A DNA stretch of 64,000 nt from Chrysomallon squamiferum (taxonomy: Eukaryota; Animalia; Mollusca): assembly GCA_012295275.1 (NCBI GenBank), contig CM022671.1, positions 9,114,001-9,178,000 on the forward strand. Direction: 5' to 3'. The translations under genes and the position numbers were made by a program. Below, one piece after another: positions 8,101-53,900 of the stretch. Below the pieces are notes generated by a model, which was given only the letters and a program-made list of their open reading frames with translations, was not told the origin of the DNA and ran no database searches. The first letter of the stretch is position 1. Every line of letters starts with the position of its first letter.

Positions 8101-11100
8101 ACCTATGTATGACAGATAACTTTTGAATATAATTAATTTTTTTATTTAAAATGTCATCTATGTTCCCATCTTGTACAATTTTAAATTAAATTTATTATTA
8201 TTATTTTTTTAATGATGAATATTTATGTAATAATGGTTTCAAGAGTATTTCTTAACTTAAAAATATTTTACATTTTACCATTAAATATGACATTAATTTA
8301 TTTATGAATTTATTATTATGATTATAATTAACTTTTTTTTTCAGATCTTTTAAACCGGATTTTTTATTAATACGACAACATGTTCGTGATGCACATGAGG
8401 ATTGGAGGAATTTACTACTTGGATTTCACTATGGTGGGGTGCCAAGCATCAACTCTATACACTCACTTTACCAGTTTCTGGATAAACCTTGGGTGGTGAG
8501 CATTATAATTCTTAAAATATTTTAAATGACTCAAACATTCATAGTTTAGTACATCCACACAACATTCATACATACACCATGCATGCATGTTTGTGCACAT
8601 ACATTCATACACAGACAGACAGACATGTATGTAGAGGTTTATATATGAATGGGAAACAGTGAATTAAAAAATGAAAACTGCCACTGAAATCAGGATGCAG
8701 GTTAAATTTTTTTTTTACTTTTTTAAAAACAAGAACACATCTGAAATATTCACGGGCTATTTTTGAATTACATATATATTTCTCTTTCTGTTTACTGATG
8801 CAGTAGGTGAGGTTAAAGGTCATGTGTTGACCTTTAGACTTGTTGACACAGTTCTGCTGATAGAATTTTAGATTGAAGTGGAAAATTTTATTGATTTCCT
8901 GTACTTGAAATTACATTCTGAGATTTGCAACATTTACATTAACAGACACAGTCAAAATATTGTCTTATAGCCATTTCAGTTCATGATACTGTCTTGTAAG
9001 CATTTCTAATCAAAATATTGTCATGTAAGCATTTCATATCAAAATATTATCTTACTATCATTGCAAATCATAAAACTGTCTGGAAATGATTTCAGATCAA
9101 AACACTGACGTGTAAACATTTAAAATCATAATACCTTGGAAGCAGTTTTAATATTTTAAACCAAAAAATATTTTGTTACACGCTTTAACAGTAAATGCTT
9201 TGTAAGCATTTCAAATGAAAACATATTTTTAATCATTTTTAGACCAAAGTATTGTTCATCAATATTATAAAAGAAAAATCTTTTCAAATTAGATATATTT
9301 TCCCATATGTATTTTAGATCAGTGCATTTCTTTAGCAAAATTATTCATAGATTTTTGCATTCATAGATGTATGTTGATTTTGTTTTAGTTTTCCACGATA
9401 ACTAATCACAAATCTTGTTCACATCCTGGTTGTTGTAGTACACAATAAACTTTTACTTCTTTCAAAGAATAACATCAAAAACACAAAGGCAGCTTATTTT
9501 TGGATCCACTTTTCAAAGTTGATAATTATTCAGTAGACGAAGTAACATATTAGCTGTCATAGTACTAAATACACTTGTAATTTTGTTTTTACTGTCATGA
9601 ATTTTGTGCCAGTTTTCATTAGCACATTTTTGGTGTCAGACACAAAGTGACGTCTGCTGTTTCTGTTTCAGTTCTCCAAGCTGATTACTATTCAGAAGCG
9701 ACTGGGTAAGGAGGCCTTCCCCCTGATAGAGCAGGCCTACTACCCCAACCACAAGGAAATGGTGAGTAACATGTGGGTACGTTTCACTTCCTCTCTTTTT
9801 CACAAAACCAATAACAAATGCATTTTTCAGAGAAATATTGAGTCCTTGCCACTTCAGTTAGCAAGATTTTAAAAACACTTTTGAGACTGTATAATTTAAA
9901 ACATTTTTTTTTTTTTTTAATAAGACTATAAAATTAAAATCAGAATTTTTAAAAAATTTTTTATGTTATGAAATAAAAAGAAAGATTTATAAAATTAAAA
10001 TCAGAATTTTTTAAAACTTTATAATATTATCAAAGTAAAAAGCACGATTTTTTAAAAGATTTTATAATTTCACAAAATTAAAATGTTGTATATTGAGTAA
10101 AGTGATTAGCTTTTAAAATGTTTTAAAAGAACAGAATGCATTTAAAGTAATTTTTGATGTTTGAATATCTAACAATAATTTCATTTTATAAAGTTAAGTT
10201 GTGAATCAAGAAAAAGTTATAATAATAATAGCATTAAAATAAATAAACAGTTTAATATTGTCTTATTTAATAAATAAATAAATAAATAAAAATATTTAGT
10301 ATATAAAACCTCACATATATGAAAATAAATCAATAAATACGATTCTGTTACTTGCTTCAGCTAGTATTCTACTGGTTTATCTAAAGCCATGACATTTGTT
10401 TTCAAACCCATGGGAAGGTGCAGAAAAGATCATTTGATTACTAAAAATGATTAGCCCATCTTATTCAGGTTTTCTTTCTCATAATCTGCATGGTCTTTAA
10501 CTAAAAATTTCTTCAATCCTCTATTCTAAATCTATGCATTTCTTGCTAAAAACGTATCATTTTGAACTTAGTAAAATGTTATTTCATTGGCTGAATGATC
10601 CAATTGCATAACAAAATTTTATGTAGCAGATTGTTACATAAATCTACAGTGGATATAAACATTGTCCTGAAAAATTCATTTAAAAAAAAAAAAAATCACA
10701 AAGAAAAAGAACAACAACAAGAATCAAAACAGAAAAAGAAAAAAAAGAAGAAACAAAATTCATGAAGGTGCCTAAAAAACTGTTCTTCCTCAGTTGTTGT
10801 AACTAAACTTCATTCCCTGAGAAAAAAAATTAATACCTTGATGATGTGTTGTAAAGACATTAAACATTTATTTGTATTAATGGGGAAAAACATAAAGAAG
10901 TAAAAAAACCCACTAAAACTTGTGATATTCCACAATTCTAATAAAACAATATTTCATTGCATGGAAAAATAATTTTGATGATGTGTCTTGATGATCTTTA
11001 ACACCAAAATGTTAAAAAAAAATGATTCTGTTGTATTTCTGAGACTACGATGCAGATAGAGACACTTGTCTGGGAACTGCATCTCCAGCTATTGTAGAGT

Positions 11101-12329
11101 ATTATTAATATCAGACCACATTCTGGCTCCTCCATCCATCATCTTCGCTCTGTCTCGGTGGAAATAAGAGACAAATTCATCGTGCAAGTGTCTGTATGAC
11201 AAGTCACTTGTGACTATTTCTCCCTGGACAGAATTTGAGATTCCTAATGAATCCAGATGCGACTTCAAAGAAAACAGAAACCTGTGGGAAATATCAATTT
11301 TAACTAAGTGTAGTTAAAATACAGGATTTATCTGCTTAGTATGTAATAACTATTATTAATGTATCAGTTTTAAATACTAAGTGTAGTTAAATGTATCAGT
11401 TTTAAATAATAAATATGATAGATTATATTGTATCTTTTTCTGAGAAAAATAAACTTTTGTATGCTTATAATTAGTTGTTTTAAAATTTAAAAGTTCATAT
11501 TTATAAATAAATATACAATGTAATATAATATAATATAATATAATATAATATAATATAATATAATATAATATAATATAATATAATAGTAATAATAAATTGT
11601 GTTATATTTCCTATCAGTTCAGTATTTTTAAAGAAATCAAAATGTCAGGTGTAAGAAATAATAATAAATAAAAGGCAGTATTTCTGAGTCTATATATTTC
11701 TTAATTTTCCTATATAGTGATTATTATTATTATTATTAATAGTAGTAATGAAAATATGAAAGTATTTATGTAATAGTAAAAGATAAGAAAAGAAAAAGAG
11801 AAAAAACTAAAACAAAGGTACATAGTATTTTTGGTAGGTTTTTGTTTGTTTACATCTCAAAAAGGAATCAGTATTTACTCTGAATATTGCATTTGATTAT
11901 TGAATATAGCTTTGTAGCTTTTATGAGCTAACAATTAAAGTGTTAAATTATACTTTACTGTAAACCACTTAATTTTTATTTATTTTTATTTTTAGGTTCT
12001 ATTTCATTTTTGTTTAAAATTCTAAATCAGATAGCATTTCTATTTATTTATTTATATAAAAGAAGTTTTAATTTCATTTTTTTTTTTTTAAAGTCTAAAT
12101 ACTAAAGATTTTCAATTTTTTTTCATTTGTTTGCTTCTATCTTTTTTGTTTGTCTAATTCAAAATAAATATATTAATTTTATTTCATTTGTGCATGAATA
12201 ATGGATGCTTATATAGAATCAAATTAAATTAAACAGACATGTTTTCATGATATATGTTTCTGATACTCTGTTATTGTCCAAAATAATAAAAAATAATAAT
12301 AATAATATTAAATAATGAAGATGATGTTG

Positions 12330-12386
<57 letters not shown>

Positions 12387-15300
12387 GTAGTAATGAAGAT
12401 GAAGAAGAGAAAAAGAAGATAAAATGAATGACACAAAGATGATTTCTGTTTCTTGGTGTTTATTATATAATATTAAAATAAAATCAGTTAAAAAAAAAAA
12501 ACAAAAAAAAAAACAAAAACAATTATGGTTACAGTAGAGTAAACCAATTTAATAATAGTGATTTAATGTCATCATATGAAACCCCCAACCAAATGTTTTT
12601 CTTCATGTGAAGTGTTGATGAAAACATAAGCAGACTATACAAAAATAAATTATAATTTTTTTCTTCAGTAGTTATATGTGTATAAATGGTGTAGCATAAA
12701 TACTGAACCAAAAAAAAAAAAAAAAAAAATAATAATAATAATAATAAATAATAATAAAAACAGCAATAGTAAAAATAACAATTTAATAAAATAATAATAT
12801 CAGTATGAACAACAGTAACAATGGTAATCATACGATAATAAATAATAATAATGAATCATGAAAAATAATGTTTCAGTTTAAAAATAAATTTAAATTTAAG
12901 AAAAACTAATGAAAAATGAAGTGGTTTACAGTAAGGAAAGAAGTGAAGCAGGGATGCAGTGAAACAGATAAACTTTGATCTCAGTTTGTGTGGTCCTCAT
13001 TTTTATCTTTTGTATGTTCGTCACTTGTGGTATTGTAAACCTTGTGAAATCTGTGTTTTATCTTGACTTTCTTCTAAAATGAACTTAAAATACTTGTGTG
13101 TTATATATATATTATTTATTCCTTTGTCTGGAAAAATAAAGAACAAGAATTATATAAAAGCAATTTAAAAACTTGGTTAAAATCTGTATGTTATGTAATA
13201 TCTGGCAAGTGTGTAGGTATATGTCTGTGTGTATATATGTCTCTTTGGTCTTATTTTTATTATTAATTGAACTATTTTCATGTATTTGACATGTCTTGAA
13301 ACAGACAGACAGACAGACAGACACATGCACGCATCCCCCCACACACGCACACATTTGTAATTAAGTATTTGCTCTAAATAAGGTCTTGTATATTTACTGT
13401 AAGTAACATATCTGGGTTGGGGTTTCTTATGCATTCACAAGACTAGGCCTAATATACCAATTCAGTTCTAACTACTGTTAACTCCTTATTATAACCTAAC
13501 ATTGTCAAAATCCATAAGCAACATTACATTTTTTGAAAATGTTTTAAATAATAAATGAATATGCTCTGTTGGCATATATCTATTCACAAAAGCTACATGA
13601 TCAAAGTTCAGTGACTAGTTAATTATTTAAACACATATTTTCTTTCAAAATTTATATTTTATGTAAACCATTGTCAAAAATAAATAGTGCAAAAAAAACA
13701 ACAATAAAAGAAAATTTAAAAAAAAAAATCTTAGATGGATGTGTCAATGTAAATTACTGCATATGTTTCAATAAAAAATAGAAAACAAAAGTAAATCATT
13801 CTTAATCATTTAATTTGAATGCATTTTTAAAATAACAATGTGTAAAAGTATCTCTACATAATTATCTTAAGATTAATGTTTATTAACTATTTAATTTTTA
13901 TTTTTTTAAATGATAATATAAAAGAAGAAACTCATTGCTACCATTTCATGGATAATTCTTATTAATTAGAATCAATGGCTCTTTTACATACATATTTCAG
14001 TGGTACAAGTTAGCACATACCATTGTCTTTGATAAGCCAGGAATAATGGACATGTTTGTGTGGGAAATAACCTGAAGGAAGAAAGCACAGAAATGTACTT
14101 CTCTGACTTGTCACACCTCAGACAGTCCTAGCACTGAGTTACAGCTGTTTTTCTATAAGATTCCAGTTAGCAACCTTCATTCTGTTAACACAGGCACAAA
14201 TTCCATTAACTTCTGTATGTGAGACACGTTTGGGTGCAGACATCACCTGATCCAGTCACCCTCATAGAATCCAAAATATAACAAACGAAGAAATATTCTA
14301 AAATACTCGTATCTTTGGAATCATTATAATAATAAAATAAAAAATGATTTTTAAAATACTGATAAAAAAAAAATTATAATAAAATAAAATAAAATAAAAT
14401 GGATAAAAAACTGAATGAATGAATGAATAAATGAATGAATAAATAAATAAATAAATATCTTTCATGGTATCTCTGAGTAATGGATTTGAAAGAATTTTTT
14501 TTTGTTTTGTTATATTTTTCTTTTCATTCGGAATAGAACAGATGCAAAAATCAGTACTTAGGAATCTGTGATGCATATTAATAATTTAAGGTATTTTCAC
14601 ACTTTATAACTCCTAGTGATGTAGGATTTGATGTGGTATTGATCAGAGAACAATAATACCAGATGCATGAAGTGTATTTCAATCACAAAATAACGTATTA
14701 AAAACTTCTTTTTTTTAATAATTTATCTTTTTTATGTTTTTATATTATTTTGTTTTACACTCAACATTTAAATATTTCAGTGGCTCAGACAAATTATGAT
14801 GGAATCAAACATCAATTTTGTTATTTTTAAAAAATTTCTGATTTCCATTTTTTTTTTTATTCCTCGAAATGAGTAGGCAGCAGCAGGCTTTAGATCTGAT
14901 CAGAGATAAAGTTTGGCACTGTGAGTTCTTTATACTTGCAAATTACTGTTTTACATGCCTCCAGTCATCATTAATAGTGAGTTATGACAAAATAATACTC
15001 TTACAAAACATTTGCAGATTTACTCCTTTAAAACAGAAATGACAGCATAACCTGTAAGACACACTGTATATTAAAGAATGCAGAGTGAACTGATTCACCT
15101 GTATGTAATAATGTTACAACAGACAACAAGACAAAATATATTTTTAACTCTATTCTCTTGTTATTATATTTTTCTGTTAACTGAAATTGGATAAAAAAGA
15201 CTAAAAAAAAGATGACTTTGGAAGTATAAACAATATATTAAGACTGTTTCTTTCTATCGCCAAGGGTTCATTTTAAAAGGCTGGGAAGTTTTCACAGGAT

Positions 15301-16384
15301 TAGCAGATGTCTTTAGTCTCTGTAATAAGAACAAATGAGCACTGAACTGCTGTTAAAGGTTTCATTGTTTAATTCATCCATCTTATTCATCATCCTTCTT
15401 AGTCTAGTGACTGTGATTGAGCATCCAGACCGAGTGTCCTACCAGATGTTGCAGCTGCCATTTTTATAAATCTTTTCTCTTATTCATCATGTCCTTCTGA
15501 GCCAAAATGAGATTTTAAAATGTTCTATTATTGAAAACCCCCCACAAAAAAACACTTAAATATATATATGTTGTTTGCAGTAATTATGATGTTTCTTTAT
15601 TAAAAAATTCCTGAGATTTTAATTTATTAAATTTTTATTTTATCCTGATCACTATCATAAAGAATGCAGACTGAGAGTAAAGGCTTTTGAATATATTTCT
15701 GACTGATGACAGTCTGAAGATATGATTAAATTTTGTTTTCATTTGATAAAGATTAAAGTGTGTCTTTTATTATTATTATTAAAAAAATATATATATGCAT
15801 TAAAAACTATTAAAATGTTAGACAGTTATAATCTGATTTTTATAAAAAACATATTTATTTAAAAACTTACTATTTTACATGCATGTTAATATCTTTCTGT
15901 AATATTTTTCTTCAGTTTCAAGGAATTTCTTTCAGTTTCATATTTTTTTGTTAAAAATGTTTGCATAATTTAATTTTTTAATTATTTTTTAAACTGGAGA
16001 AAATTGCTTGGGTTTCTGAGTATTTTTTTGGAAAGGTGAATTCTGTGTGTCAAATGTGCAATAACTGAAAATCAATGAGTGAAGACTCCTACTGGACTCT
16101 GTTACTCACTTGTCACAATCAATTACTCTGAACTGAGAACACAGAATAAACATTTCCTCAGCTCAAACACCAAATACAATCAAACTCTTTTTGCAGGTTT
16201 CATTTTTTTGCTCAAATGCTATCCAATATCGTGTTGTTCTTATGTATCTCTCTGTCTCTTTCTCTCTCTCTCTCTGTCTATCTCAATTTAAAATGATATA
16301 CTGTACGATAACTTACAATTGGCATGATAAACATACATATATATATATATATATATATAGACAGGTAGGTAGGTATATAGATAG

Positions 16385-16452
<68 letters not shown>

Positions 16453-16616
16453 AAGAGTTTTATACATATATATATACACATATATGTACATATACATACT
16501 TATTCTGAAAGGTGAACAAAATTACACATATTAGGTTGGATAAATCTATACAAATATCTTAATATTATAAAGAGTAATGAACTTTAGTTCCAGCCCATTA
16601 GATATGTTGAAATACT

Positions 16617-16659
<43 letters not shown>

Positions 16660-19600
16660 ACACACACACACCACCCATTTTTTTTTTTTGTCGTCCACAT
16701 ATTTTTGCATCGTCCATTTATCCAAATAATTCCTGATCCATTAGTGTGTCCATCCATCCCATTCATTCATCCATCCATCCATCCATCCATCTCTCTGAAC
16801 CCAGATCTCTCTCAGTCTCTGCTCTATTTCGCACAGTATTGGGTTTTTTTATTAAGGTCTCTCTGCAAATTGTGATTCATATAAGCTAATGTGCTTCACA
16901 GACTTTAATAATTAATATTAACTGTGGGAATAGATCCTGACAGCTCAGCTGGAAGAGGTTTTGGCTTTGAAACCAGAAATGCTGTTTAAAATCCTATCAT
17001 TGGAAATCTTGTAAATGTTTATGTTTTTATTGTGTCAATTGTATAAGCATCCAGTTATGTTTTATCTTCCAAGTAATGCTCATAGTTTGACAGACAGATA
17101 AAAAGATAGATAGATAGCTATAGATAGACAGATAAATATATAGATAGACAGATGGATAGATAAAATACATGGGTGGATGGATGGATGGATAGACAAATAT
17201 ATAGAAAACATACTGAACATACAGATATATAAAGTTGACTGTTCTTTCTTTCTCCACACTAAAACAAAAGGTGATAAATGACTTTGAGAAATGATGAAAT
17301 GATTGTGAGATCATTGTGACTAGAAAATTGAATCTGAAGTGCCATCTTCAGCGCTGTTGTCATGGCACCATTATGTAAAATGAAGAGTCAAACTGATCAA
17401 CCACATCGTCGCTGTCATCGTGTACTTTAAAGAAAAGTACGCAGATGCTTTTAGTTTCAGGTCATGTCATTAAGTTTGTGTGTTAAAGTGCTTTCACACT
17501 TAACAACTTTTAGTAACAGCTGGTATTACTGTTATTAACTTTTAGCATTAAGCTGTTTTCAGACAATTTATAGCAATAATAAAATTGGGAGAGAGAATAT
17601 ATCACAACAGATTTCTTAGTAAATTATCACAGATGTTAACGTTCAATGTTACGCTGTTTTCATACTGTACAACTTTTAGTAACAACTGATAGAACTGAAA
17701 TAAGATATTGGATCAGAGACTATATCAGAATGGATGTGTTTAATCATTGTTAAATTTCAGTGTTAAGCTGTTGTCACACTGTACAATGTTTAGTAACATC
17801 TGATATGATATTGATACAGAGTAATGTTAGAGTTAATTCTTTTTGTTTGTTATATCTTATTGATTTTAAATCTGTGATTAGTATTAAGCTATTTAACATC
17901 TGGATGGGAAAACTGATTTGTGATGAATCAGAGAGAGTTTGCATTTGTCCAAATCTTTCTTGAAAAACATGATGAACATTAAGATGCTTTCACACTACGC
18001 AATGTTTAATAATTTATATACTGAAGATGTAGCAATGATTTAGTTATTCTTTCAGTTATTATAAACATTACACATATGACATAATTTAAAAAACCCTCTT
18101 GAGCTAATTATTTTAAGTTTTATTTGAATTTTGAAGTATACATGACATATTTAGGCTGTTTGTTCCCTCAGCCTAAAATGCACATTAAAACAATATGCTG
18201 AGATATTTTTAAATTCAGATACTTATTTTCTTCTGGTAATCCTATATTTAAGTGCTGTAAATTCACAAAGATTTTATGTTTTGCATAAATTACAGAACTG
18301 TATCCTGCCACATTTGAATATTGTTAGTGTCAGATAGAAAAGATTCAAGGTTGAGTGTCCACTCACAAAACTAACTTTGTAAAATGCTGAAATGCACACT
18401 CAAAACACTGAAAACATGGATGAGAGTGAAGTTTAATTTGCAAGAACAGTTTGGCACTTCCAATGTCCTGTTTACAGCAGATTTTCCAACTTTCAGTGAT
18501 ACAACTTCCATCAAAATAGCAACTTATTCAATGCTTTTATCTGCTGTATAATTGATTTATATCCGTTGTAATTCAATAGATGTCTTTTTATTAAATTTGT
18601 GCTGTTTCAAAATAAACTGTTTTGGTCTAAAAAATGTACACTGTTTAACTATAGGAGGTTTCATACATTATGAATTTTGCTGCTTAAATATAGGATTACA
18701 TTTCTTTCTTACAATTAAATGCTGTATACAATTAAAATGTTTTATGAAAACAAATGTTTAATAATTAATTTCATAATCAGAAACATGAATCAGAGCTGTT
18801 GTTAATGCTTAGAGGAATTAATTAATTTTAATAAACAGATTTTACTGTTTTATGTCATATTTATTTTTTATCAGTTATCAATTATCAGTTACTTAAAGTA
18901 AGAGAATACAATAAAGGAATAGGATAAACATTTATCAGTATAATCAGCACTTAATTTAACAGATATATGCAAATAATGTCAGTGAAGTTTATTTTAAGTA
19001 ATATTTATCTATTATAGTTAAACTAATATTGAAATAAACAGATCAAGTCAAATAATATGAATAAATGAATGTTTTTTTATAAAAATATTATATTAATTGT
19101 TTTTTTTATTATATCTCTGTATTGAAATTAATAGGTCTGGTTGAATTATGTGAATGAACCTAAGATCTATTAATTTATATTTTGTATAAAGTAATAATTA
19201 AATTAAAATATCTAGTTAAATAGAATGACTGAATGAAAATGTGTTTTAAGACATATTCATCTGTTTTTCAGAAATTAATACTGAAATTAATAGATCTAGT
19301 CAAATAACATTTGTTTAAAGACATATTCATTTATTTTTAAATTAATACATCTGTTAATAAATATCTATTTTTCTGTTATCTTAATCAATAGCATATGAAT
19401 TTATGTAAATAATTTGATTGAATTATTGTTAATTTATAGACATACTAAATTATTTTTCAGTCTGTTTAATCATTACTGATGTTAATAGATCTATATAGAT
19501 ATCCGTAAATGAATATTAGTTTTAGAAATTATTTATCAATCAGTTTAATGCTGAAATTAACGGATTTGTACAAATAGCCTGAATGAATGAATCTTTGTCT

Positions 19601-22506
19601 TAACATTTCCTTTTATTTTAATTATTTCTAATTATTATTGAAACAAGCATATCTACCTGAAAATGCATTTTTTTAAATATATTTTTTTAAATTTAATACT
19701 GAAATTAATAGACGTAGTCAAATTATATGATTGAATAAATAATTTTAAAGATATATTAATTTATTTACCTGCCATTGTAATGAATATCAAACAATGATAT
19801 AAGAATAACATATTTATTAATTTCTTATGAATCCCAGTCAAAAGTAATATCAGCATGAAAGAATCAGTATAAGTTTAAAGATGTCAAATGCATTTTTCTG
19901 TCAATGGTTCTTAGATATCAGTCATTTATGTTTGAACTGATAATTAAATTTTTGTCAGAGGAAACAAGTTGTGTACATTATAAATATTCTCATCAGTTAG
20001 TAGTGCATTTTTATACAGATATGTAAGAACATGCCAAATATTTTGATATATATATGTGTGTGGAGCTTTCGTTTGGAATGGGAATTTAACAGCTGGAAAT
20101 ACTAAGGAGGATTGATCCTACTTCCCATAGATAATAATCTTATCATAGGGTGTTTACTAGTAACATAACACAGACTTAACCAATTAGTACCATGTTTTGT
20201 TATCTGATTTCTAGTTGTGACTAACAATAAAATAGAAAATATAGATTTTAAGAAATAATATTTGAACAATTATAATGTTTATTTTATTGTTGTTTTATTT
20301 TATTTTATTTTATTTTATTTCATTTCATTTTTTAAAAATACTTTTCTTAAATTAAAACTTTAAATATATTTAATTTTTTTATGAAAAAAAAAGCATTTTA
20401 AAAGTAATCTTTTTATTCAGTGTATCACAAATTTGTAATAAACAGAAAAATTACAACATCATAAAAATGTTCAAATATTAAGTAAAATTTTAAAATGAAA
20501 TTATTTTAAGAAAAGGCTTCTGTCACAAATCACAAAAATTAAACATTAATATCTAAAATTTTATTTTGCAGCTTATTACACCAAAGTTTCCTGTGGTTGT
20601 CAAAATTGGCCACGCCCACTCAGGAATGGGAAAGGTGAGATGTACTTTATTTTAATCATATATTTTCAATATCTTCTAACTGCTTTCATAAGTCAAGGAT
20701 CATTACAAATATATATATATATATTTTTTTTTTAAATATTATTTTAAATTTTGCCATTCATTAAAATAAATTTACTTGAAAAATCATTTATTTTATTTTA
20801 AACTGGATATTTAAAAATACTTAATTTATAAAATAAATATCTCAAACAATGATAATATTAGAAAAAAAAAAAAAAGTATTACAATAGTGATAATATCAGA
20901 AATGAATAATACACAATCAATGATAATATCAGAACTAAATAATACACAGTGACAATATCAGAAATAAGTATACACAATCAGTGATAATATCAGAAATAAA
21001 TAATTCATAGTCAATGATAACCTCAGAACTAAATAATATCAGAAATAAATACTACACAATCAGTGATAACATCAGACATAAATACTACACAATCAGTGAT
21101 AATATCAGAAATCAATAACACACAAGTGGTGATAATGTAAACAAATTAATAATACAATCACATTGTCAGAAGTAACATCACAATCAATGGTAACAGCAGA
21201 AACAAATAACAGACAGTCAGTGATAACATCTTTAATTCATCCAGTATTGATCATTAATATTGAGTAAGTGTTGAGAAAACAGTACATTGGTCAGCACGGA
21301 ATATACTGCACTCCAAACACAAATCAGATGAGTATGTGATTGCTTTTAGGTTCTGAGTAACCATTAGGTTTTCATCACAAAACCTTTCACTAGCCTGACT
21401 GCCAGGGGAAGATGTCTCTCATGTAATTACTCTTTGATTACCCTGACTCTTCTGAAACGAGACACACCCTTTAATATAATGCTTCCTCTTGATGCAGCCT
21501 CATCATTTTTTTGCTGGTCAGATGAAAAAGTCTCGTTCAGTTATGGATTTTGTCTCTTGGTCATGATGCTCCTGTTGTGCCAGTAGATTAGTCTGGTAAA
21601 GACAAAGACCTCTATTATTATCAGAGTGTTTTTTTGTTTGTTAACATACTAACAAGTTAAGACCACAGTGAGGTTATTGGATTAAGCTTGTAAACAGAAA
21701 AACAGTGGAACACATCTTAAAGTTATTTTCTGACTTGGTGACAAGTTAAATTGAAGTAAGATCTTTGGATTATATTTTTAAAAAGAAAAAAACAACAAAA
21801 ATGAAACAAACTAAAACTAACAAGCTAACATAGCATCAAGGTTACTGGTATTAAATTATATTCCTCAAAACTCAAAATTCAGATCTGAAGCTGTTTTCTA
21901 AAATAGGAGCATGCTAACCCAGCAGAAGTATAATGTATTAAAAACAATATAAGATCTAAATAGAATTTATATTTATGGTCTAAAAGTATTTACTTACTTA
22001 CTAACAAAACTAACACACTAAAATAGGCTGGTAAAGTGAAAAATGTAAGTTTATTAGTAAAGGCTATAATTATTTACTATAAGTAATCATTAGATTCTGT
22101 TTGAAACCAATTTAAAATTATACTTCATTAACTACTAACATACTAACAAATCAGTATCATATTGAAATTAAAATTTTGTTATCATCTATTGAAATTCTTT
22201 AGAATAACCATGACATTTAAATATATGACTAGAAAAATATCCTTAAATAACATTAATGGTGTATTTTTAATTGAATTTATTCATAAATATAGTTTATTTA
22301 TTTATTAATTTTATTCTTTTGTCTAAAGTGGCATAAATATTTTTGTAATATTGTTGATATCTGTAAACATTAAAAATGCAGAAAATAATTCAAAGATAAG
22401 AGTAGTGGAAAAAAGTAAATTAAAGTTTATTTTGATATTTCTGTTAGATTGTATTTATTGTTCAAAACTAATTGAAATATTTATTACATTGTTATTGTTA
22501 TTGTTA

Positions 22507-22576
<70 letters not shown>

Positions 22577-24922
22577 AGCAGTTAACTACCAGTCTTTTCT
22601 TGAAATATTCATGGGATATTGATTTTTTAAAATAATATTAAATAATGAAACAGTATTTGTATTCATAATGATAATTTTATATTTTAATATTTATTTCTAT
22701 TTTTTTCTGGTGATTTTAAAATTAAATATAATAATCTTGCTAAAATCATGAATTAAAATGTGCAATGGCTTTTTAAAATGAAACCACCAATGGCATCTGT
22801 TTTATCATGTTTTGGATTAGTGAAATGGAATATAATTTAAAAAAAAAAATAATAAAATAATTTTTAAAAATATTAGATTTCTTTAGTAAGAAGAATTTTC
22901 GGAATTTATATATCTCAGTACATTAAATGTTTAAGTATTCTAAAATCCATTTTTAAATTAAAAATAATACATTTCAGAACTCTGAGGGTTTTTTTAATTT
23001 ATGAGATAATATTTCCAGTTTTTACAATTATTAATTTCTAAAATAATATAATTAATAAAATTGAGAAATATATTTTGAGTTCTAAAGCAATTTTTATAAA
23101 TAAACATTCCTAATTTTATATGCATTTTTTTTTTACTTCTACATTAAAATTCACATTTTATAATTTTTACAAAATTTTCTTGCAAATATATATTGCTGAT
23201 TTCCAAAAAACAAATACGATTTTCTGATTTCCAAAAATTCAGAATTTTAGAAAGCAGTATTTCTCTCAATTTCTAAATCCAAGATTAAATAAAAAGTTAC
23301 AAGAATTATTTTTCCGCACTCAGATGAAGATAGACACTGCTCACAGTTTTCAAGATATTGCGAGCGTAGTGGCCATAACGCAATCATATGCCACCACGGA
23401 GGCGTTTGTCGAAGGAAAATATGACATCCATGTCCAGAAAATTGGAAACAATTACAAGGCCTACTTGTAAGTGAAGTGTGAATATCACTTACATGTGGCT
23501 GTTTTCATTATCTGTCTGTATGCAGGTAAAAAACACTGGGTGTCTGTCCATCTGTTTGTCCTCCACATGTCACTGGATGTTTTGTTTGTTAAACGATGGT
23601 GAAGAAAAAAAAAAAAAGATTGAAAACTTAAATTACTAAATTTCAATAATTATACAGAAGGAACCAGCAATGTTTATTGATAAATATTGATAAGTTCACT
23701 TTATAAATTACAATAATCATGTAAAAGAAACCAGCAGTCTTTCTTGATAAAGTATGTTTGGTTTTTTTTATTTACAAGTACATAAAGACTGAAAACTTTA
23801 ATTTATTAATTTCAAAATTTTTAAGAAGGAACCAAAATGTTTATTTATATAGCATACATGTTTGATAAATGGTTTAATTTCTAAACTTCAGTAACTATAT
23901 AAAAGAAAATAATACTGTTTATTTATAAAATATGAATAGTTTGTAAATATCAATATAATTATATCAAAAGAAACAGTAAAATTTATTTAATATATGATGT
24001 TTGATAAATGGTTTTAATTTCTAGATTTTTAAAATTATATATTAGGAACTAAAATTTATAGAGTATATAAAGTATGATTAATGTTTAAATCAGAATAATT
24101 ATATAAAACAAAAATGTATATTATATCTTTATTGATGAGATTTTTCATGAGCTGAAAGTTCTGACTTAATTTGTTTAAGATATCCATTTGTGTTAGGTTT
24201 CTATCATAAACAATCAAAAAAAAAAAAAAAAAAAAGCCAACAAAAATGACAATAATAATAATAATAATAAACAAAAAAAATATTTATAAAAATGTAATCT
24301 GAATTAGATTTTTATAATGCCGTTTTAACAAAATAATATCTCATTTTGCACAAAAGAGAAAAGTTAGAATATATAAAAAATAATTAGTATAGACATTTTT
24401 TTGTGATAATTATTATTTTTTATAAGACAGACTTATGTTCTCAGACCACACAAAATTATCTAAATGGACACCTGATGTTTTTTACCTGTAATTCTGGGTG
24501 TCTTATTTTTTTATTTAGCACTTTGTATTAGCCATGGATGTTTATAATAGAAAACCTTTTTTGAAATTATTATATATATTATTTATTTCGACTCATACCC
24601 AGTAGTTCTGTTATCCTTTAGTTATTGAACATTAGTTTTGAAAATCACAAGTAGAAACTATTTAACTACAAGTCTGCTTTTTATGTCATTTTGTGAAGTC
24701 CAAATTGCTAATGGCTGCTGCAGTTTTAACATTTGAAATGACTGTTACAAAAAAATCAAAGTTAAAAAAAAAATCAAAGAAAGGACAAACACTGTTAACT
24801 GAAAATTGAATTTAGCAATATTGAAAATCTAATATTACACTCTTCAGGGAATTTACTGGCTCAAAATATTATACACATAGTCATCAACATTTTCACATAC
24901 AACACACATACATACATACAAA

Positions 24923-24953
<31 letters not shown>

Positions 24954-24954
24954 A

Positions 24955-24985
<31 letters not shown>

Positions 24986-26431
24986 TTCACATTGACAAAG
25001 AAATGCATTTTTGAATGTATATTTATTTTATCATATTAATTCAAATTGTATTTCTTTAAATTTAAATTTTCTTGGGAATACTAATATTTAAATACAATTT
25101 TGTTTGTTTTCTTTAAATAACAAATAAATTAAACTAATGAAATGTTTCACTTTTTAAAAGAAAATAAATCATTTTTTTTTTTTTTTTTTAATTAATAAAT
25201 TCTTAAGACAACTTAATATTTCACATTTTCTAACAATAAAAACAATAAGTTTTTTAAATCTCCATTTCTACTTATACACATCCATGGCTTCATTTTCATG
25301 TACTGCATGCTTGCGTGGTCTTTCTGTTTAGCTACCATTTTTGACTTTTTCGGCTATACACGCAGGTTAGGATAGGCAGCCATTATGATTTTCAAGACAT
25401 CGCGGGTGTTGTGGCAGTTAGTTGCAGCTACTCCACAACAGAACCGTACATTGATGCCAAATTCGACATTCACGTTCAGAAGATAGGGACATTTTACAAG
25501 GCTTTCATGTAAGTGCTTGTTTCTGCCTAGCCTAGCCTCGTGAATTAGATTGTTCAGTGTTTGTTTTTTTTGTGGTTTTTTCAGCTGTAGCTTTCTGTTG
25601 TGTGTGGCTTTTCCTTTGTAAGTTGCTTCTGTGTGATACATTTTGATTGTGTTGCTTGAGTGTTGTGTTAAAAAAAAATTATGTGTTGCTTATGTGGGGT
25701 GTGTTTATTTGATGTCTTTATTTGAACTTCATGGTTTTAAAATTAAAATAGAAGTTAGAATTAATTACTTTTGAAAATGTTCATCATCATTATCATTATT
25801 AGTAGTATTATTAACTGCCAATACTGCTATAACTACTTTATTATTAATATTATTGTCATTATCATTCATTATTATTATTATTATTACAAAAACCCTTTTA
25901 TTATTAACAAAACATTGTACACACACACACACACACACATATAAATGTGTGTATGAATGTAAAATATATATAATGTTAGGAAAGTGGTTAATGGCTAATG
26001 GAAGTGTTAATTTACTAATTTACTAACCTACTAACAGGCTTTTTCTCTCCCTCACCTAACAGGATAACTGCATTTTCCCATTAGGGTCTACTTAAATGCT
26101 GTCTGTTTGACACGTAATTAAGAATGATAATTAAATTACAGGCAGACATTAATCACATTACATAAAACTCATCAGAAGGTCAATAAACAATGTTTGGGTC
26201 ATTTTGACCAATACTCAAACAGGTCATCACTCTGTTATCTGTGTAGAAAATGTCAAGATATAAATGAACTGCTTGTCTCACTGAAAGTATGGAAACAGGC
26301 TGAAAAATGCTGGTGGAAATGGTGGTAATAATAATAGTAATAACAACAAATAATAATAATAATAATAGTAATAGCAACAACAAATAATAATAATAATAAT
26401 AATAATAACAACAACAACAACAACAATAAAA

Positions 26432-26498
<67 letters not shown>

Positions 26499-27280: not shown

Positions 27281-30200
27281 TGCATATTATGCATGCATTA
27301 AAAAACGTTGTAAAGCTATTTTTTGTTATTTCCTTGTATGAAACCAAACCAATACCAAGTTAATTGTTTTTCTGATTAATTAATATTTTAGACATTACTT
27401 TTGAAAGGTTACTACAACAAATGAGAATTTCTTCAGAATATCTATTTGTATACTAATTATTTCTTCTTAGAATAACTGACCCATTTTGCAAACCAATTTA
27501 ATTTTCTAAATATAAAAGTAAGATAGATTAAATTCTGAAGATGAATTTTAATATGATTTTTTTTGGAGCATCTACTCTGTTTTCTGTTTGCTTCTTTATT
27601 ACTCTGTTATTTCTTTTATTCTGCTCTTCATTCATGCTGTTTTTTACTAGTATTTTATATTTTAATGTTCTTCTTTTACACTCTGCTTTATTTTCTTCAT
27701 ACTTGATATTCAGCTCTACTGTTCTCTCCTTTCCTTTTCACATCATCTCCAGATTTTTCTTTCTTCACTTTTCTTTTCTTTGTTTTCTTCTCCATCCACT
27801 GTATCTTCTTTTCACTCACTTTATCTTCTTTTCAATCACTTTATCTTCTTTTCAATCACTTTATCTTTTTTCACTTGCTTTAATTTCATTTGACTTACTT
27901 TGTCTTCTTTGTACTGAATTTATTTGCTTTTGGCTCACTTTTTCTTTTTAGTTGCTTTATCTTCTTTTCACTCACTTTATCTTATTTTCTCATGCTTTAT
28001 CCTGTTTTCAAATATTTTATCTTTTCTTCATTTAGTTTATCTTCTTTTAAATCAATTTATATTCTTGTCAGTTACTTTATCTTCTTTTCACCTATATTAC
28101 CTTCTTTTCACTCACTTTATCTTCTTTTCACTTACTTCATATTCTTTGAACACACATTATCTTTTCTGTTGAAAATCTTCTATTTCATCATTTCATTTTC
28201 TTCACTGTTTAATTGTTTTTTCTTCTCTTACTCTGTTTTTCTTCATTGTTACTCTCTGCCTTTTCTTTTTTTATTGTTTTTATTATCTTTCTTTTTCTAT
28301 TTTTCTTTTTGTCACATTTTCTTTTTTGTTTTGTTTTGTTCTTTTTTTCATGAATTTTTTGCACTGAATACCTTCAAACCAACTTTTATTAAATCCTGAA
28401 AATCACTAATCGTTATACTGGGTAGTTTACAAAGCTAATAAAAAGAGGATGAAGGTTTAAAAGTTAGATAAAGAATTAAATAAAATGGAGTTAATTAACC
28501 ATAAAAGAAAGATCAGAGTATTAATCTGGTTTGATTAACCTAAGAAGAACATACTGATTACCCAGTCTATATAAAATATAAAATTTTATGTTTTCTAATT
28601 TTGGTGTAATAAGCGTATATATAGATTTATGTGTAAAAAAGAAAAACAATGTGAGAAGAACTTCATAAAACATGGGAATACATGTGCTGTGTGTAACCAG
28701 TGTCAGTAGATGGACAGATATAATTAAGTATGTTGAAGATGATTACAGATCTCTGTGTACTTTGTCAGGTTTCAACCTCTGGCTTTTTTCATCTCTAATC
28801 TCCGATTCTTTTTTCTTTGTCAAAATTTATAAATCCTTTTCTGGTAAATGTAGCTGAGAGTTTTAGAAGAATTTTTTTCTTTCTTGCTTTACTGGGTTTT
28901 TTTTTTTTGTTGTTTTTTTTGTTTTGTTTTTAATTTTAATTTATTATTAATATGATATTATATTAGGATTTTGTTAGTTATTTTTTATTTATTTTTTTTA
29001 ATATTTATTTAAAGAAAAACTAAATTTACTATTTCTTTTTAAGCATTTCTGTATTAATATATTAATATTATTATTATTATTATTAATATTTTATAATTAT
29101 GTATATATATATGTGTATGTATATGTGTGTGTGTTTATATGTTTGTGTGTGTGTGTGTTTATCACACTCTTCTCCATTATTTAACAATAAATAAAAAATA
29201 GGATATCAAGTTTTGTTAATCTTTTTTCAGATTATTATTAATGAAAATTCCCTGTTTATTCAGATTATTATTAATGAAAATTCACTTTTTATTCAGACTG
29301 TTATTAATGAAAATTCATTGTTTATTCAGGAGAAAGTCTATTTCTGGCAACTGGAAGGCTAACACTGGATCAGCAATGCTTGAGCAGATAGGAATGAATG
29401 AAAGGTTTGTGCATTGTACCAGAAACACATGATTTTATTTCGACTGGCCTAAGTTTTAAATTTTAATCATTAACCTTTCAGAAAAAGATAAAAATAAATT
29501 CTCTACTATATTTTATTAATTTTAATAATCTCCTTTATTGAACAGCAGTATATTACTAAATTTTAATTATGGAAAAATATTCCAGAATTATAAAGTTTTT
29601 ATTTTAATTATTTTGTTTCATCTATAATGTTGAATAAAAATATGAAGAAAATTTTTGATCACAAACTGTAATATTTTATTTTAATTATTCTTTATCATTT
29701 TTATTAAACCTTTTACAAAGTACAATTCTTTTAAAATATAACTTTATAATTTTTATATTTTAGTCAGGGAAGATTTACATTTTTATAACAAAGACTGAAA
29801 AAACTTTAGTATACTTTGAAATTGTTTTATATTAATTAAAGTTATACATTTCATTCTGTTTCAAAACCTCCCATTACATTCAAATTCTAAATTTGTCCAG
29901 TGTTTAATACCAGTTTGAAAGTCACAGCTTTTCTATTATTCAAGCAGTTTTATCAGTTTGCTACATTTATCTGACTTAGCATGTTTTAATGTGAAAGGAG
30001 ATGATATTTTGGTTTCTGTGGAAACTGGCTGACATTTTGCTATTTGAAACAGTCTGATATTTTCATGAATATTTTAGAAAACATATTTTTTATTTATAAA
30101 GTTTAATATATATTAAAACAATAATAATAATAATAATAATAGATAATTATATATTACAATTTAACTATGTTAGTTTTGAAATAGTAAGATTTTCTGTAAC

Positions 30201-38460: not shown

Positions 38461-40884
38461 ACTAAAAGCAATCACTGAGGTCAAAGTTCAAAATGTGTAC
38501 ACTCAGCTGAAGGCTTACATTTGAATCTTTAAATACAAATATATATAACTGTTTGTGTATGATGTAAAACGATAAACAGATTTCAACTGTTTATAAATAA
38601 TATACTTTTACTTATCTGGAAACATAGAACTTAGTTAGCAATGTATTTTTAAAATGTTCTACTAACATCTGATGACATTAACTCAAACAAAATGTTTTCG
38701 TAACATCTTTATGAAGTGTGTTCATGTGGAGTGTGCATACAAAACATTCTAAGATTTAAATACAAATTTTGTACATTATAAAGACATACACTTTGCACAG
38801 TATCTAAATATTTATATTCATTCAATTCTTAATCATATGAAAATTTAATACAGGATAGGTGTTTATAAGTTTACAAATCATGTAGGATATGGTGTTATAT
38901 AATTTTATCATTTGCTTAAGTAGAAGAATCATTTGAAGTAATTTAAACTTGATATAATGTTACATATTTGTATCAAATATATTTGAAAAGTAATATTCAT
39001 GTTACATACAGATGCATAAAAAAGAGAAAATTCGAATTTGACCATTTTCATTATTTAAAGGCCTTTATGCTTTAATATTTTACTTTCAAAATATCATATT
39101 CTTTTCTGCTCAAATAATATTATTAATATTACTATTATTAATTTATTATTTTGGGAAGATTCATTTTTAATATATATCTATATACATGTATATATATGTA
39201 TATATGTATATGTATATATTATTTTTGAAAACAGAATATATTTTAAGTAAGTTAAATACTAATATTTTATATGACTAAAATAAATCATTTTAATTATCAA
39301 CAATTAATCACATCTGTTTTGATAACAATAAAGCTTACACACCTAAACCATTACAAAATATATATGTATAATGTACAAACAGAACATTAATTTATTTTAC
39401 AATAATTATAAGAAAAAAATAAAGAAAAAACCCACAAGTGTTAGACGGAGTGACTACAGACAACAGAAAAAATCTTGACAATACTGTGCAAATAAAACTC
39501 TCTATAAATAAACAATGTGCAAACAATTAATAACAAAATGTGTATCTATGGCTAATTTGTTTTTATTGTAGTTATATGTGCACATGTCTGTCTGTCTGTC
39601 TGTGTGTGTGTGTCTCGATGGGTCTGTATTGTGCAAGTCTTTTTGTATTGTGTGTTTAAATGTATGTGTGTATATTTTCTGGTGCCTATGTGTGTGTAAG
39701 TATATATGTATAATAATCAGGCACGACTGTTTACTGTGTGGGTGTACATATATGTGTGTGTGTGTGTGTGTCAAATATTGTCAGTGTGTGTGTATGTGTA
39801 TTCAGAATATTCTTTGACACATACGTTAATAAAATGAAAAAAATATATTTATTTTTGATGCTATTAGTTTTGGCATCTAGTCAAATTTAATATGTTAAAG
39901 TCACAACAACAGTTTAATTAAAATTAAGAAAAAATCTAAAGTAGAAAACATTAATATTGATAAATATTTTTTATTCATTCAGCTCTGGGCTCTAACATTG
40001 CACATTCATTTTTCTTTATCATTCCAACTACAGTAAACAGTTAACAATAAAAGTGAATTAACAGAAATTTTTTACCCTTAAACTGGTGTTAGACTGCAGA
40101 TTTAAATGTCTTAATTACAGCTTTTGATATTCCAACATAATAATAATAATAATAATAATTCAACAATAACAGTATTAGTAATTTACAATAATTCCAAAAT
40201 TCTTTTACAAAATAACAAATGATAATAATAAAAATATAAAAAATATCAAATTTAATAAAACAATTTAAAAATTCAGTTTAACTTGTCACTGTCCTTATTT
40301 TAATTTTTGGTATAATCTGTATTTGAGAATAACATGATATTTTTAAAATGCCAAAAGCTGTAGGAACTGAAATAAATGAAAAAAGAACACAAATTACTTC
40401 TCTCTTTCTTTTTTTTAATAAACCAATATTACCAATGTATGTATATTTTTTTAATAAACCAATATTACAGATTTTCAGCTGAAAACAGAAAAAATAAAAA
40501 AAATAAAAATAAAAGAGAAATAATTTTTATTATTTGTATTATTATTACCATTAATTTCTTTTTGTTTTTATTATTTTTTGCTATCATTATTAATATTATT
40601 GTATATTATTATAACTGTTATCATTATGTTGGTTATTATTATTATTATTATTGTTAATAATAATGATGATGATAATAATATCATCATTACCTTTGTCATT
40701 TTCATTTTCACATTCATTATCATTAACTTCATCATTATCATTATTATTAGTGCTTATTAAAATCAGCAATCCAATTTAACCCCTGGTATGCTCTGGACAA
40801 AATACTAAGATCACTTAATTCAGTTTCTCCTGATTGGACATTGAAAATCTGCATAGAGTTGTTGTTGATCACAGTAGTAGTCCT

Positions 40885-50900: not shown

Positions 50901-53900
50901 GTCAAAAACCCAAGAAAATATGTCACAAAAATTTATTTAAAATTCTAAAATATATTTGTATTCTGAAATGAACCCATTTTCTAATGCAAATAATTATAAC
51001 CAAAAGGGAATAAAAGCTAGAGAGCTAAATGATAAAATGATTTGAAGAGCTATTCAGTTATAAGTTTGTATAAAAAAAGAAGAAAAAAAAGATTTAGTCT
51101 CATTTAGATCATCATGGCTGTTTTAAATTTCAGTCTACCTAAAATTTTGGTCTATGAATGGCAGTTTTGTGAAGGTAATGTTTACAGATAGGAATCCATC
51201 CATCTCCAGCCTGTCATACCTGCTCCATGTCATCTCTTTGTGCTTACAGCACTTCACGTAACCATTTGTCCAGTGACATAACCCAGACCCTGCACACTTG
51301 GCCCCAGTTTACTGTCAGTGGGGTAACAGTGCTTCTTACACACAAACCTGTCCTTACTTCCAGCAGCCATAACTTGATCCAAGTGTGGATGAAATGTTAG
51401 CCAGAATGAAGTAACAAAACATCACCATCACGGTTCTGTCCTCATCATTTTCTATCAGTGAGATCTTGATGTTACGGGAGATGAAGTAACTGGGAATACC
51501 AGGTTATAATCAGAGGCTTCATTTTACTACTCCATCTTTCAGCCTCCATTAAATTAGCATCAGTGAGGTAACAGGATCACAGGCTTGGATGGAACAGTGT
51601 CCTTAAAGAACACATTAAATAGCTTTTATGAGAATTCCATGAACAAGGAGTACTTGGGTTGTAAAGATTTTGTTTTCTTTCTTTAAGTCTAGACAGAAAT
51701 GTATTTACCATATAACACCATCTATTTAAATTAATTCACAGACTTTTGAGTACATGTAACAATTGTCTAAAACTGACATTGTAAAAGAATGACTGGCAAT
51801 TTTCATCACATGTAATTTTAAGTCATCTTTCTTAGATAAAATTGATAATTTTTAAAAACTATATTAGTAGCAGTCACTGGTTGCAAGTCAAAACAACTTC
51901 CAAATTATTATTATTATTATTTATGATTTCTTTTTTAAAAAACATTTTTAACTTCAGTAACAAAAATTGTAAGTATCTTTTAAAAATATAATAAAATAAT
52001 TATTAACAAATACTGCTTCAGTAATAACTGATTTTGTATTTCATCAGACATGGTAACGAAGACTCACAGCATATTAAATTGAGTATACGAATTAAATTTA
52101 AACAGCTAATAAAAGACTAATTGTTAATTTTTGAGATACATAAATAAGTCACAGACTTGCAGAAAAATGTACAAGGAAGTGTAAATAATTCTGAAACCTG
52201 AGGCAGAATTTAATAGTTAACTGGTCTATTCTTGATTACGTAACATGTCACTTTATGATCAACTGTTTTTTGAGAAAAAAATAAATCAATCTTGACAGTA
52301 ATAAACTGTTATGTAAACAATGAGATTATAGGAATTGTCTTGATCTAGCTTTTGTTTTTATTTTATTTTAAAGAATTTAAAGCAATGTCTTTGTTTCCTA
52401 ATCTAAACAAGATAAATGTTATTTATTACATTATAATAGGTGAGATGGAACACACTAAAATTCTAGAGCTTTTTTTATTATTATTATTTTTTTATATCAT
52501 TATTTCTCTTTAAAATTCTAGATGGTAATGATATAATTTTTGATTATTCCTAGACACCTAATAATTCCTTTAACTTGTATTTTCATATTCTTAATATATT
52601 TTCATATATTTATTTTCAGGTGATGTTCACCTGATCTAAAGCTGACAGCAAGAATTGTTGTAATTTGTTTTTCACATATCTGTGAGTGAAGTTGACAAAA
52701 AATGGAAAATGCATAGTTCATATGACCTATCAATGCATGGGCGAGACAATGTCGGGGACCGCCCATTCAAATCTTATCCCCACCACCCACAAGCCACAAT
52801 GCCATCTTCCTACTATGGCTCGGGCTACCCCACACAATCATACATGAACCAGTCTGCAAACTGTGGCATGCAGCTGCCTCATACTACTTCCCAGGACTAC
52901 TCCCAGTCAATGTCAGCATGCCGCGGTGGACTGGAAATGCCACTTCCAGGGACTTCAAGTTCAGATGGACTGCATTCAGGAAATGGCCACAATCGTCCTA
53001 TGCATCTCATGGACATGAATGTATCAATGACCAAGCAGGACGAAGATGACCACTACAGCCACCACAGTTCTCCGGGTATGGCATCCACTTCCATGAACTC
53101 ATCGTCAAGTCCTTTAGATGACCACGACACCAGCAACTCACCAGGAAAAGATGGAGATGCAGATGGCTCCTTTAAAATGCCTCCCAAGAAGCGTCCTGTT
53201 AATGTGGGTGAAGAACAGAAGGATGAGGGATACTGGGAGAAGAGAAAAAAGAACAACGAGTCTGCAAAAAGATCGAGAGAAGCTCGTCGCATGAAAGAAG
53301 AACAGATTGCACTTAGAGTTGTCTTCCTCGAGCAGGAAAATCTTCAGCTTCGCACAGAGGTGTCACTGCTGAAGAGTGAGATTGAAAAACTCAGGTGCAT
53401 GCTGTACAATTCTTGAAATGGGATGTGTGGTGATGTTTGATTGAATTAAAAACAAAACGAGAAAACTATGCAACATGTTGCTAAAGGATCTTTTACGTAA
53501 CTTGAATGTTCAGCTGGAAAAATTGTTGTGGATTAGAAATACTAAATATGTATGTGAAATTCTGATGGCTTAATGGAAATGTAAAAATTAAACGGAAAAA
53601 GAGAAAACTTTGTTGTGCTTTTGCCAGCTTAGAATAAAACCATGTAAATACTTCAATGTTTATTTGTTGTTGATATATTAACAAAAAATATTTTTTTAAT
53701 TATGTCTGAAGTGAGAAAGACACAAATAAGGGAAAAAAGAAAACCATAATTTTTTTTTTAAATATTTATTTAAATTCTGACAATTTCAGTGTGAAGCAAG
53801 CAGTGAGAATTTAAACATCTTAAATCCATGATTAAAAATAAGAATTATGGACAGGTTGTCATTTTCTTAAGCTGCATTAACTTATATATTTATTTATTGG

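Follow-up and report, generated by a model that had tools for sequence, protein, structure and literature searches.

Three Candidate RNA Locks at a Duplicated Synapsin Exon Pair of Chrysomallon squamiferum

How does a synapsin gene that holds two versions of the same exon come to use one of them? The question is raised by a 64,000-nucleotide stretch of the mollusk Chrysomallon squamiferum (GenBank assembly GCA_012295275.1; contig CM022671.1, positions 9,114,001 to 9,178,000 of the forward strand; here called the window), in which the first 33 kb hold most of a plus-strand synapsin gene (tblastn) and two copies of exon 7, named 7a and 7b, lie between exons 6 and 8 (Table 1). An earlier note on this DNA had proposed that one intronic element, here called E1, pairs in turn with the 5' splice sites (donors) of both exons and thereby acts as an RNA switch. 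Here, we report that E1 is predicted to pair locally with the 7a donor, and we describe two further elements, E2 and E3, with complementarity to the 3' splice sites (acceptors). With middling confidence, we read E1, E2, and E3 as three local RNA locks that would keep each duplicated exon shut by default, and not as a donor switch.

The closest relative found for the synapsin exons was Gigantopelta aegis (identities in Table 1), in which isoforms X1 and X3 carry 7b and isoforms X2 and X4 carry 7a. The two C. squamiferum exons are identical at 87 of 143 nucleotides, and the protein versions that they encode are just 55% identical. Exon 7 codes for 48 residues of the synapsin ATP-binding C domain, including a tyrosine that, by alignment to the human sequence, we take to be Src site 8 and that presumably lies near the adenine pocket. 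The reading frame is open in the 6-7a-8 splice and in the 6-7b-8 splice; with both exons included, translation would end at codon 3 of 7b, and with neither included, it would end inside exon 8. Double-inclusion and skip products both carry the early stop expected where exclusivity is enforced by nonsense-mediated decay, and decay is among the exclusivity mechanisms listed in passages of PMC6071210. Steric exclusivity through a too-short intron was ruled out (the 7a-7b intron, 23467 to 25365, is 1899 nt long), as was U2/U12 incompatibility (GTAAGT at both donors, CAG at both acceptors).

A comparison of protein isoforms showed 7a and 7b to be a genuine alternative pair, common to gastropods and bivalves. 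Isoforms with either exon were found in Gigantopelta, three Haliotis species, Aplysia, and Biomphalaria glabrata, which bears out as an alternative pair what the earlier note had called two mutually exclusive synapsin exons; a Tegillarca gene model fuses part of one exon version to the other. Among the proteins listed, octopods, a chiton, caenogastropods, and several clams had only 7a and oysters had only 7b, and absence from such a listing does not equal loss. The exon 7 tree (35 rows, 48 columns) separated a 7a side of 18 rows (branch values, 95/88) from a 7b clade of 8 rows (98/92). Because each of them holds both gastropods and bivalves, the duplication appears from this tree to predate the gastropod-bivalve divergence, which makes the pair an old one.

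Aplysia is a classic model of synaptic plasticity, and both exon versions are expressed there, with three isoforms (11.1, 2.1, and 7.1) carrying 7b and one (8.2) carrying 7a. A mid-protein difference between Aplysia synapsin isoforms, printed as a “possible substitution” (PMC2825198), is this 7a/7b exon pair; the passages of that paper on the isoforms describe neither a duplicated exon pair nor a mechanism. Octopus Syn8.2 was considered as a 7a/7b swap and rejected, since all three octopus isoforms have the same exon 7 and the passages of the octopus synapsin paper that deal with it show a single exon 7 version (PMC6817820). Passages of the same paper name synapsin Tyr301 as a Src site. No paper on the synapsin 7a/7b pair or its control was among the matches listed in the literature (subscription papers were not covered).

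The element from which the earlier note started, TCACTTACATG, lies at 23485 to 23495, with its first base at intron position +19. Its pairings were reproduced base for base: 23485 to 23493 form a perfect 9-bp complement of 23466 to 23474 across a loop of 10 nt, the stem extends over 23458 to 23500 and is interrupted by a single U-U mismatch (23465/23494) and a single bulge (23462), and 23486 to 23495 form a perfect 10-bp complement of the 7b donor (25506 to 25515). An exonic CAT said to distinguish 7b held in part, in that 7a ends in CTT and 7b in CAT, but just one base (position -2) differs. Whichever donor is taken, all but one of the 11 bases of the E1 core can pair with it.

Folding placed E1 on the nearer of the two. 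The hairpin over the 7a donor gave a z score of -4.4 (0 of 200 shuffles as good), and a stem of at least 9 bp over this donor arose in 78 of 50,000 intron shuffles. Opening the 7a donor costs 12.3 kcal/mol, versus 6.5 ± 1.5 kcal/mol in shuffles (0 of 400 reach it), and is the costliest opening among 12 donors, followed by that of a constitutive donor (11.1 kcal/mol). The probability of the pair E1:7a donor was 0.995 to 0.998 in every unconstrained fold, and a stable local hairpin closing this donor, as suspected earlier, is thus predicted in each of them. The 7a donor is also weak, with a U1 pairing of -6.2 (fourth weakest of 12), so that both features of a donor-masking stem-loop, a predicted stable local stem over the donor and a weak donor, were found together. 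A second predicted hairpin downstream contains a cryptic donor (Table 1) with a U1 pairing of -8.3, compared with -6.2 for the true 7a donor on the same U1 end; its use would add 59 nt, including an in-frame stop. E1 was also considered as a branch point for the AG at 23524 to 23525 and rejected, since its branch A lies 24 nt from the donor, a spacing too short for splicing; a distant branch point for 7b was likewise rejected (many intervening AGs).

The other two elements face the acceptors. The intron flanks in which the elements lie have the highest GC content of the gene (0.41 after 7a, 0.38 before 7b, and 0.39 after 7b; others, 0.09 to 0.34), a point in favor of the locks. A TGCATG upstream of 7b is a candidate Rbfox-type motif. 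E2 follows E1 in the same intron and pairs with the 7a acceptor and exon start over 16 bp; across 33 kb of pre-mRNA, no site pairs better with E2 than the 7b acceptor. E3 starts at +15 of the intron after 7b. Nowhere on the plus strand of the window does the 7b acceptor have a better partner than E3, whose pairing with the 7a acceptor gives just -4.9. In the same ranking, E2 comes third for the 7a acceptor and third for the 7b acceptor; among partners shared by both, it is surpassed by one, a TCTG repeat at 39586. For 10 exons of the synapsin gene, and for 8 outside loci, the strongest pairing between an acceptor and the flank downstream of its exon was compared with that in shuffled sequence. 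Shuffles did as well in 5 of 1000 cases for 7a (E2) and 2 of 1000 for 7b (E3), versus 42 to 194 of 200 for the 8 other exons and 41 to 170 of 200 for the outside loci. With wider windows in four flank/site combinations, a value of ≤1/100 was obtained in 4 of the 8 tests on 7a and 7b and in 1 of 32 on other exons. The fold of 25340 to 25620 as a whole was not significant (16 of 200 shuffles). After E3 comes a GU-rich flank (25540 to 25665) with predicted pairing along exon 7b; in one long fold, it also pairs along exon 7a.

Pairing of E1 was stable in all unconstrained folds, whereas that of E2 and E3 varied with context. Two local folds gave the pair E2:7a acceptor a probability of 1.0, and a 2.3-kb fold gave it 0.14; E2:7b acceptor had 0.82 in one 2.4-kb fold and 1e-7 in another, in which E3 takes the site. 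Locally, opening both 7a sites costs 21.0 kcal/mol, versus 7.3 to 14.7 kcal/mol for the nine other exons, 7b included. The cost of opening 7a and 7b jointly equals the sum of the separate costs (coupling, +0.5 and -0.3 kcal/mol); the folding model thus contains no coupling between the exons, and independent locks therefore fit better than a switch.

As modeled, E1 and E2 nest and would close 7a at both ends, and E3 would close the 7b acceptor, in some folds only. Each exon would then be repressed by default, until a tissue- or state-specific protein, or fast binding of U1 or U2AF, opened one exon at a time. Once the 7a donor was opened, E1 could pair with 23563 to 23570, and nonsense-mediated decay would clear frameshifted products. 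Such an arrangement would need no RNA communication between the two exons. If the locks are conserved, the synapsin pair would be a compact, testable case of splice-site masking beyond insects and vertebrates. E2 and E3 are the most promising lead.

Parts of this arrangement have precedents. The stem-loop of tau exon 10 is a local hairpin over a donor. In SMN2 exon 7, a hairpin, the stem-loop TSL2, has been proven to cover a weak donor (passages of PMC1802598). E1 may act like such donor-masking hairpins and, as they do, would compete with U1 from a local stem over a weak donor; unlike them, which belong to cassette exons and come with probing and mutant data, it follows an exon of a duplicated pair and is predicted only. 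More generally, exons that are looped out, or whose splice sites are covered by structure, are used less (passages of PMC8052449). Docking site/selector and bidirectional pairing around duplicated exons are described for Dscam, 14-3-3zeta, Mhc, and srp (passages of PMC6071210 and PMC4691838). The synapsin elements share with the docking and selector sequences of Dscam-type systems the competing or paired intronic complementarity around duplicated exons, but there, pairing between introns brings splice sites together and activates, whereas the synapsin pairings cover splice sites and would repress. Docking of the Dscam type was not found in the near flanks of exons 6 and 8, which were all that was scanned (best pairing, -7 to -17). 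The class of mechanism is already known, and the gain is one of breadth and not of a new principle.

The rival that survives best, possible if doubtful, holds that the pairings are chance or mutational by-products, that proteins on the GC-richer flanks set the exon choice, and that decay of frameshifted products mimics exclusivity. The rival draws on several results that weigh against the locks. One further hairpin of this kind was found among 161 GTRAG sites in the window (each hairpin appears on both strands), no shuffle of 100 did as well as another constitutive exon in a similar pairing test, and a perfect 9-bp anti-donor was present in three and not in the other five of eight near-identical, insect-like single-exon loci. 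Anti-donor hairpins, which occur at constitutive exons too, are too common to prove function by themselves. E2 resembles a TCTG repeat, and because both acceptors can also pair with the one at 39586, dinucleotide shuffles flatter E2. An exon length of 143 nt is not divisible by 3, and template switching yields short inverted repeats. What the by-product rival leaves unaccounted for is that three separate elements target splice sites of the alternative exons, with none found at the acceptors of the 8 other exons or of the 8 outside loci.

Other points also count against the three locks. Pairing of E3 with the 7b acceptor depends on context, with probabilities of 1.0, 0.005, 0.999, and 0.13 across folds, and the local opening cost of 7b (11.6 kcal/mol) is ordinary. 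E2 and E3 were found post hoc, the windows of the acceptor test were picked after both had been seen, and all structures are predictions on naked RNA. A metagenome scan for orthologous introns returned 23 loci (19 with an intron after the exon, 2 spliced copies, and 2 unrelated), none of them with both exons and none gastropod-like. Two bivalve-type 7a loci had neither E1-like nor E2-like pairing, and neither contig showed a second exon copy; these loci do not decide the matter, because 7a alone was seen among the proteins listed for clams of this sort.

Further searches covered viral contigs (no synapsin loci), prokaryote genomes (two irrelevant loci), and contigs of four sequencing runs against 22900 to 25750, which left 23188 to 23571 uncovered and contained no exon joint. 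One DNA contig over 25205 to 25750 had no difference listed in 25205 to 25569, while three of its four differing letters and both gaps lay at or beyond 25570 (one letter unlocated); this is a weak hint, as the run may be the source sample. Among the insect-like loci of the metagenome scan, a three-base difference sets L011, L014, and L015 apart from L012, L013, and L016 to L018 and makes the perfect 9-bp anti-donor, at about +22 to +30. Rfam gave three weak microRNA matches in the window, far below the cut-off and on an AC/TG repeat, and a tRNA search found none.

A switch at the acceptors, in the manner of human ATE1, is unlikely. In ATE1, a single intronic element can pair over the 3' splice site of either of two exclusive exons, and compensatory mutants prove the competition (passages of PMC7797038). 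In such a switch, E2 would close either the 7a or the 7b acceptor and thereby free the other, with E1 possibly nested outside. The layout may resemble that of R1, R3, and R4 at ATE1 exons 7a and 7b (passages of PMC7797038), with two homologous exclusive exons and an intervening element complementary to the splice-site region of each; E2 matches at the acceptors, and an alternation of E1 between the donors would be the mirror image. The E2 duplexes (Table 1) were equaled by a shared element in 0 of 1500 shuffles, and given the homology of the exons, the chance of the double match was 0.004 and 0.006 (Markov chain Monte Carlo [MCMC], with correlated samples), compared with 0.064 to 0.087 for E1. 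E2 rather than E1 is the better candidate for a dual element. The probability of 0.82 for E2:7b acceptor in one 2.4-kb fold also favors the switch, but E3 occupies this acceptor in the other long fold and coupling is about zero. In addition, a 24-mer that is a perfect anti-7a sequence gives as much as -22.6 with the 7b acceptor, and the TCTG repeat matches both acceptors. Unlike the ATE1 elements, which are conserved in vertebrates and proven by compensatory mutants and antisense oligonucleotides, the synapsin elements are predicted, and 7b has its own stronger lock in E3. Because competition was not found in the folding model, the synapsin pair is not classed as an ATE1-type switch; conservation of the locks would make E2 a second element like that of ATE1.

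Slightly less likely again is a two-part cassette in the 75 nt after 7a, in which E1 as anti-donor and E2 as anti-acceptor would together close either 7a or 7b at both ends. E1:7b donor nests outside E2:7b acceptor, both states are nested and free of pseudoknots, and the summed duplex energies are close (-42.3 kcal/mol with 7a closed and -44.0 kcal/mol with 7b closed), but these sums omit the cost of a 1.8-kb loop. If true, the cassette would work as a switch, concealing the donor and the acceptor of whichever exon is not in use, in a pair predating the gastropod-bivalve split.

That E1 alone alternates between the 7a and 7b donors and thereby enforces exclusivity, as the earlier note had it, is very unlikely. 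Beyond the perfect 10-bp match to the 7b donor, this model has in its favor that T23494 is the best base for 7b (-17.7, versus -13.3 to -14.9 with others) and costs about 3.8 kcal/mol against 7a, that shared elements as good arose in 3 of 1500 shuffles (without conditioning on exon homology), and that E1 ranks second as a shared donor partner on the plus strand of the window and third for each donor. The donors, however, share eight paired bases and the C at -3, which leaves the 7b-specific information in one base of E1, T23494; this T is equally explained by the local partner at 23563 to 23570, because that pairing uses it too. Given the 7a match, a 7b match this strong has a chance of 0.064 (enumeration) or 0.087 (MCMC), in line with the earlier caveat that an element matching one near-consensus donor partly matches the other, and a value of -17.7 also turned up in 4 of 40 shuffled island pairs. 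In three folds of 2.2 to 2.4 kb, the probability of E1:7b donor was 2.4e-12, 9.4e-13, and 1.6e-12; with the 7a donor forced open, it rose to 7.7e-4, and E1 moved to its local partner (0.92). Long-range folding models are crude, yet the gap in probability is large. With no coupling between the exons and a 7b match that is not significant once the 7a match is given, a single element switching between both donors is unlikely, and the claim was not upheld.

Extremely unlikely, finally, is a reading of E1 as the 5' splice site of a transcript from the opposite strand, such as that of a nested TIMP gene: E1 reads as a consensus donor on the minus strand and TIMP genes are usually nested antisense within synapsin genes (passages of PMC2825198), but no TIMP or other family appeared at E<0.02 in 40 of the 115 minus-strand open reading frames (ORFs) listed for 9.8 to 29.3 kb, a TIMP motif pattern gave nothing convincing, the last Pfam-matched exon of minus-strand MON2 lies near 40.9 kb, and E2 and E3 would stay unexplained. 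A nested TIMP gene was not detected in the usual long intron (9777 to 20571; a subset of ORFs scanned), and the antisense reading frame over E1 as a query gave no matches.

Table 1. Exons and predicted pairing elements in the synapsin gene (positions in the window; duplex energies in kcal/mol)
Feature	Position	Strand	Details
Exon 6, constitutive, upstream	20572..20634	+	63 nt; tblastn; spliced frame open
7a acceptor and exon start, predicted E2 partner	23321..23338	+	6 + 10 bp with a 2-nt bulge; duplex, -22.5
Exon 7a, alternative	23324..23466	+	143 nt; CAG acceptor; GTAAGT donor at 23467; 94% identical to G. aegis X2/X4
Hairpin over 7a donor, predicted	23458..23500	+	3' arm is E1 (23485-23500; core, 23485-23495)
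Second hairpin, predicted, with cryptic donor	23508..23529	+	GT at 23526; probability, 0.85
E2, intronic	23539..23555	+	Complementary to 7a acceptor (-22.5) and 7b acceptor (-26.3)
Alternative local E1 partner, predicted, when 7a donor is open	23563..23570	+	8 bp with 23491-23498; probability, 0.92
TGCATG motif	25304..25309	+	Upstream of 7b
7b acceptor and exon start, predicted partner of E3 or E2	25359..25382	+	
Exon 7b, alternative	25366..25508	+	143 nt; CAG acceptor; GTAAGT donor at 25509; 89% identical to G. aegis X1/X3
7b donor, proposed long-range E1 partner	25506..25515	+	Complement confirmed; pairing probability, ~1e-12
E3, intronic	25523..25542	+	Complementary to 7b acceptor, 4 + 8 + 7 bp (19 bp), -31.1; pairing would loop out 7b
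Exon 8, constitutive, downstream	29330..29404	+	75 nt; tblastn; spliced frame open

Elsewhere in the synapsin gene, two donors 15 nt apart (9762 and 9777) give an optional five-residue insertion, VSNMW, which is also found in Gigantopelta and Aplysia isoforms and, as VSNLW, in Octopus isoforms. A TTA repeat before 7a (22488 to 22575) and a TAA repeat after 7b (26383 to 26498) are complementary over about 69 nt and bracket both exons; repeats of the TTA/TAA type are frequent in this sequence. The intron before 7a contains a GC-richer block (21250 to 21640; GC content, about 0.4), in which 8 ORFs tested had no Pfam match. Downstream of the synapsin gene, MON2 occupies 40888 to 62934 on the minus strand, and an open frame of 250 codons encoding a bZIP protein lies between MON2 exons on the plus strand (52664 to 53413).

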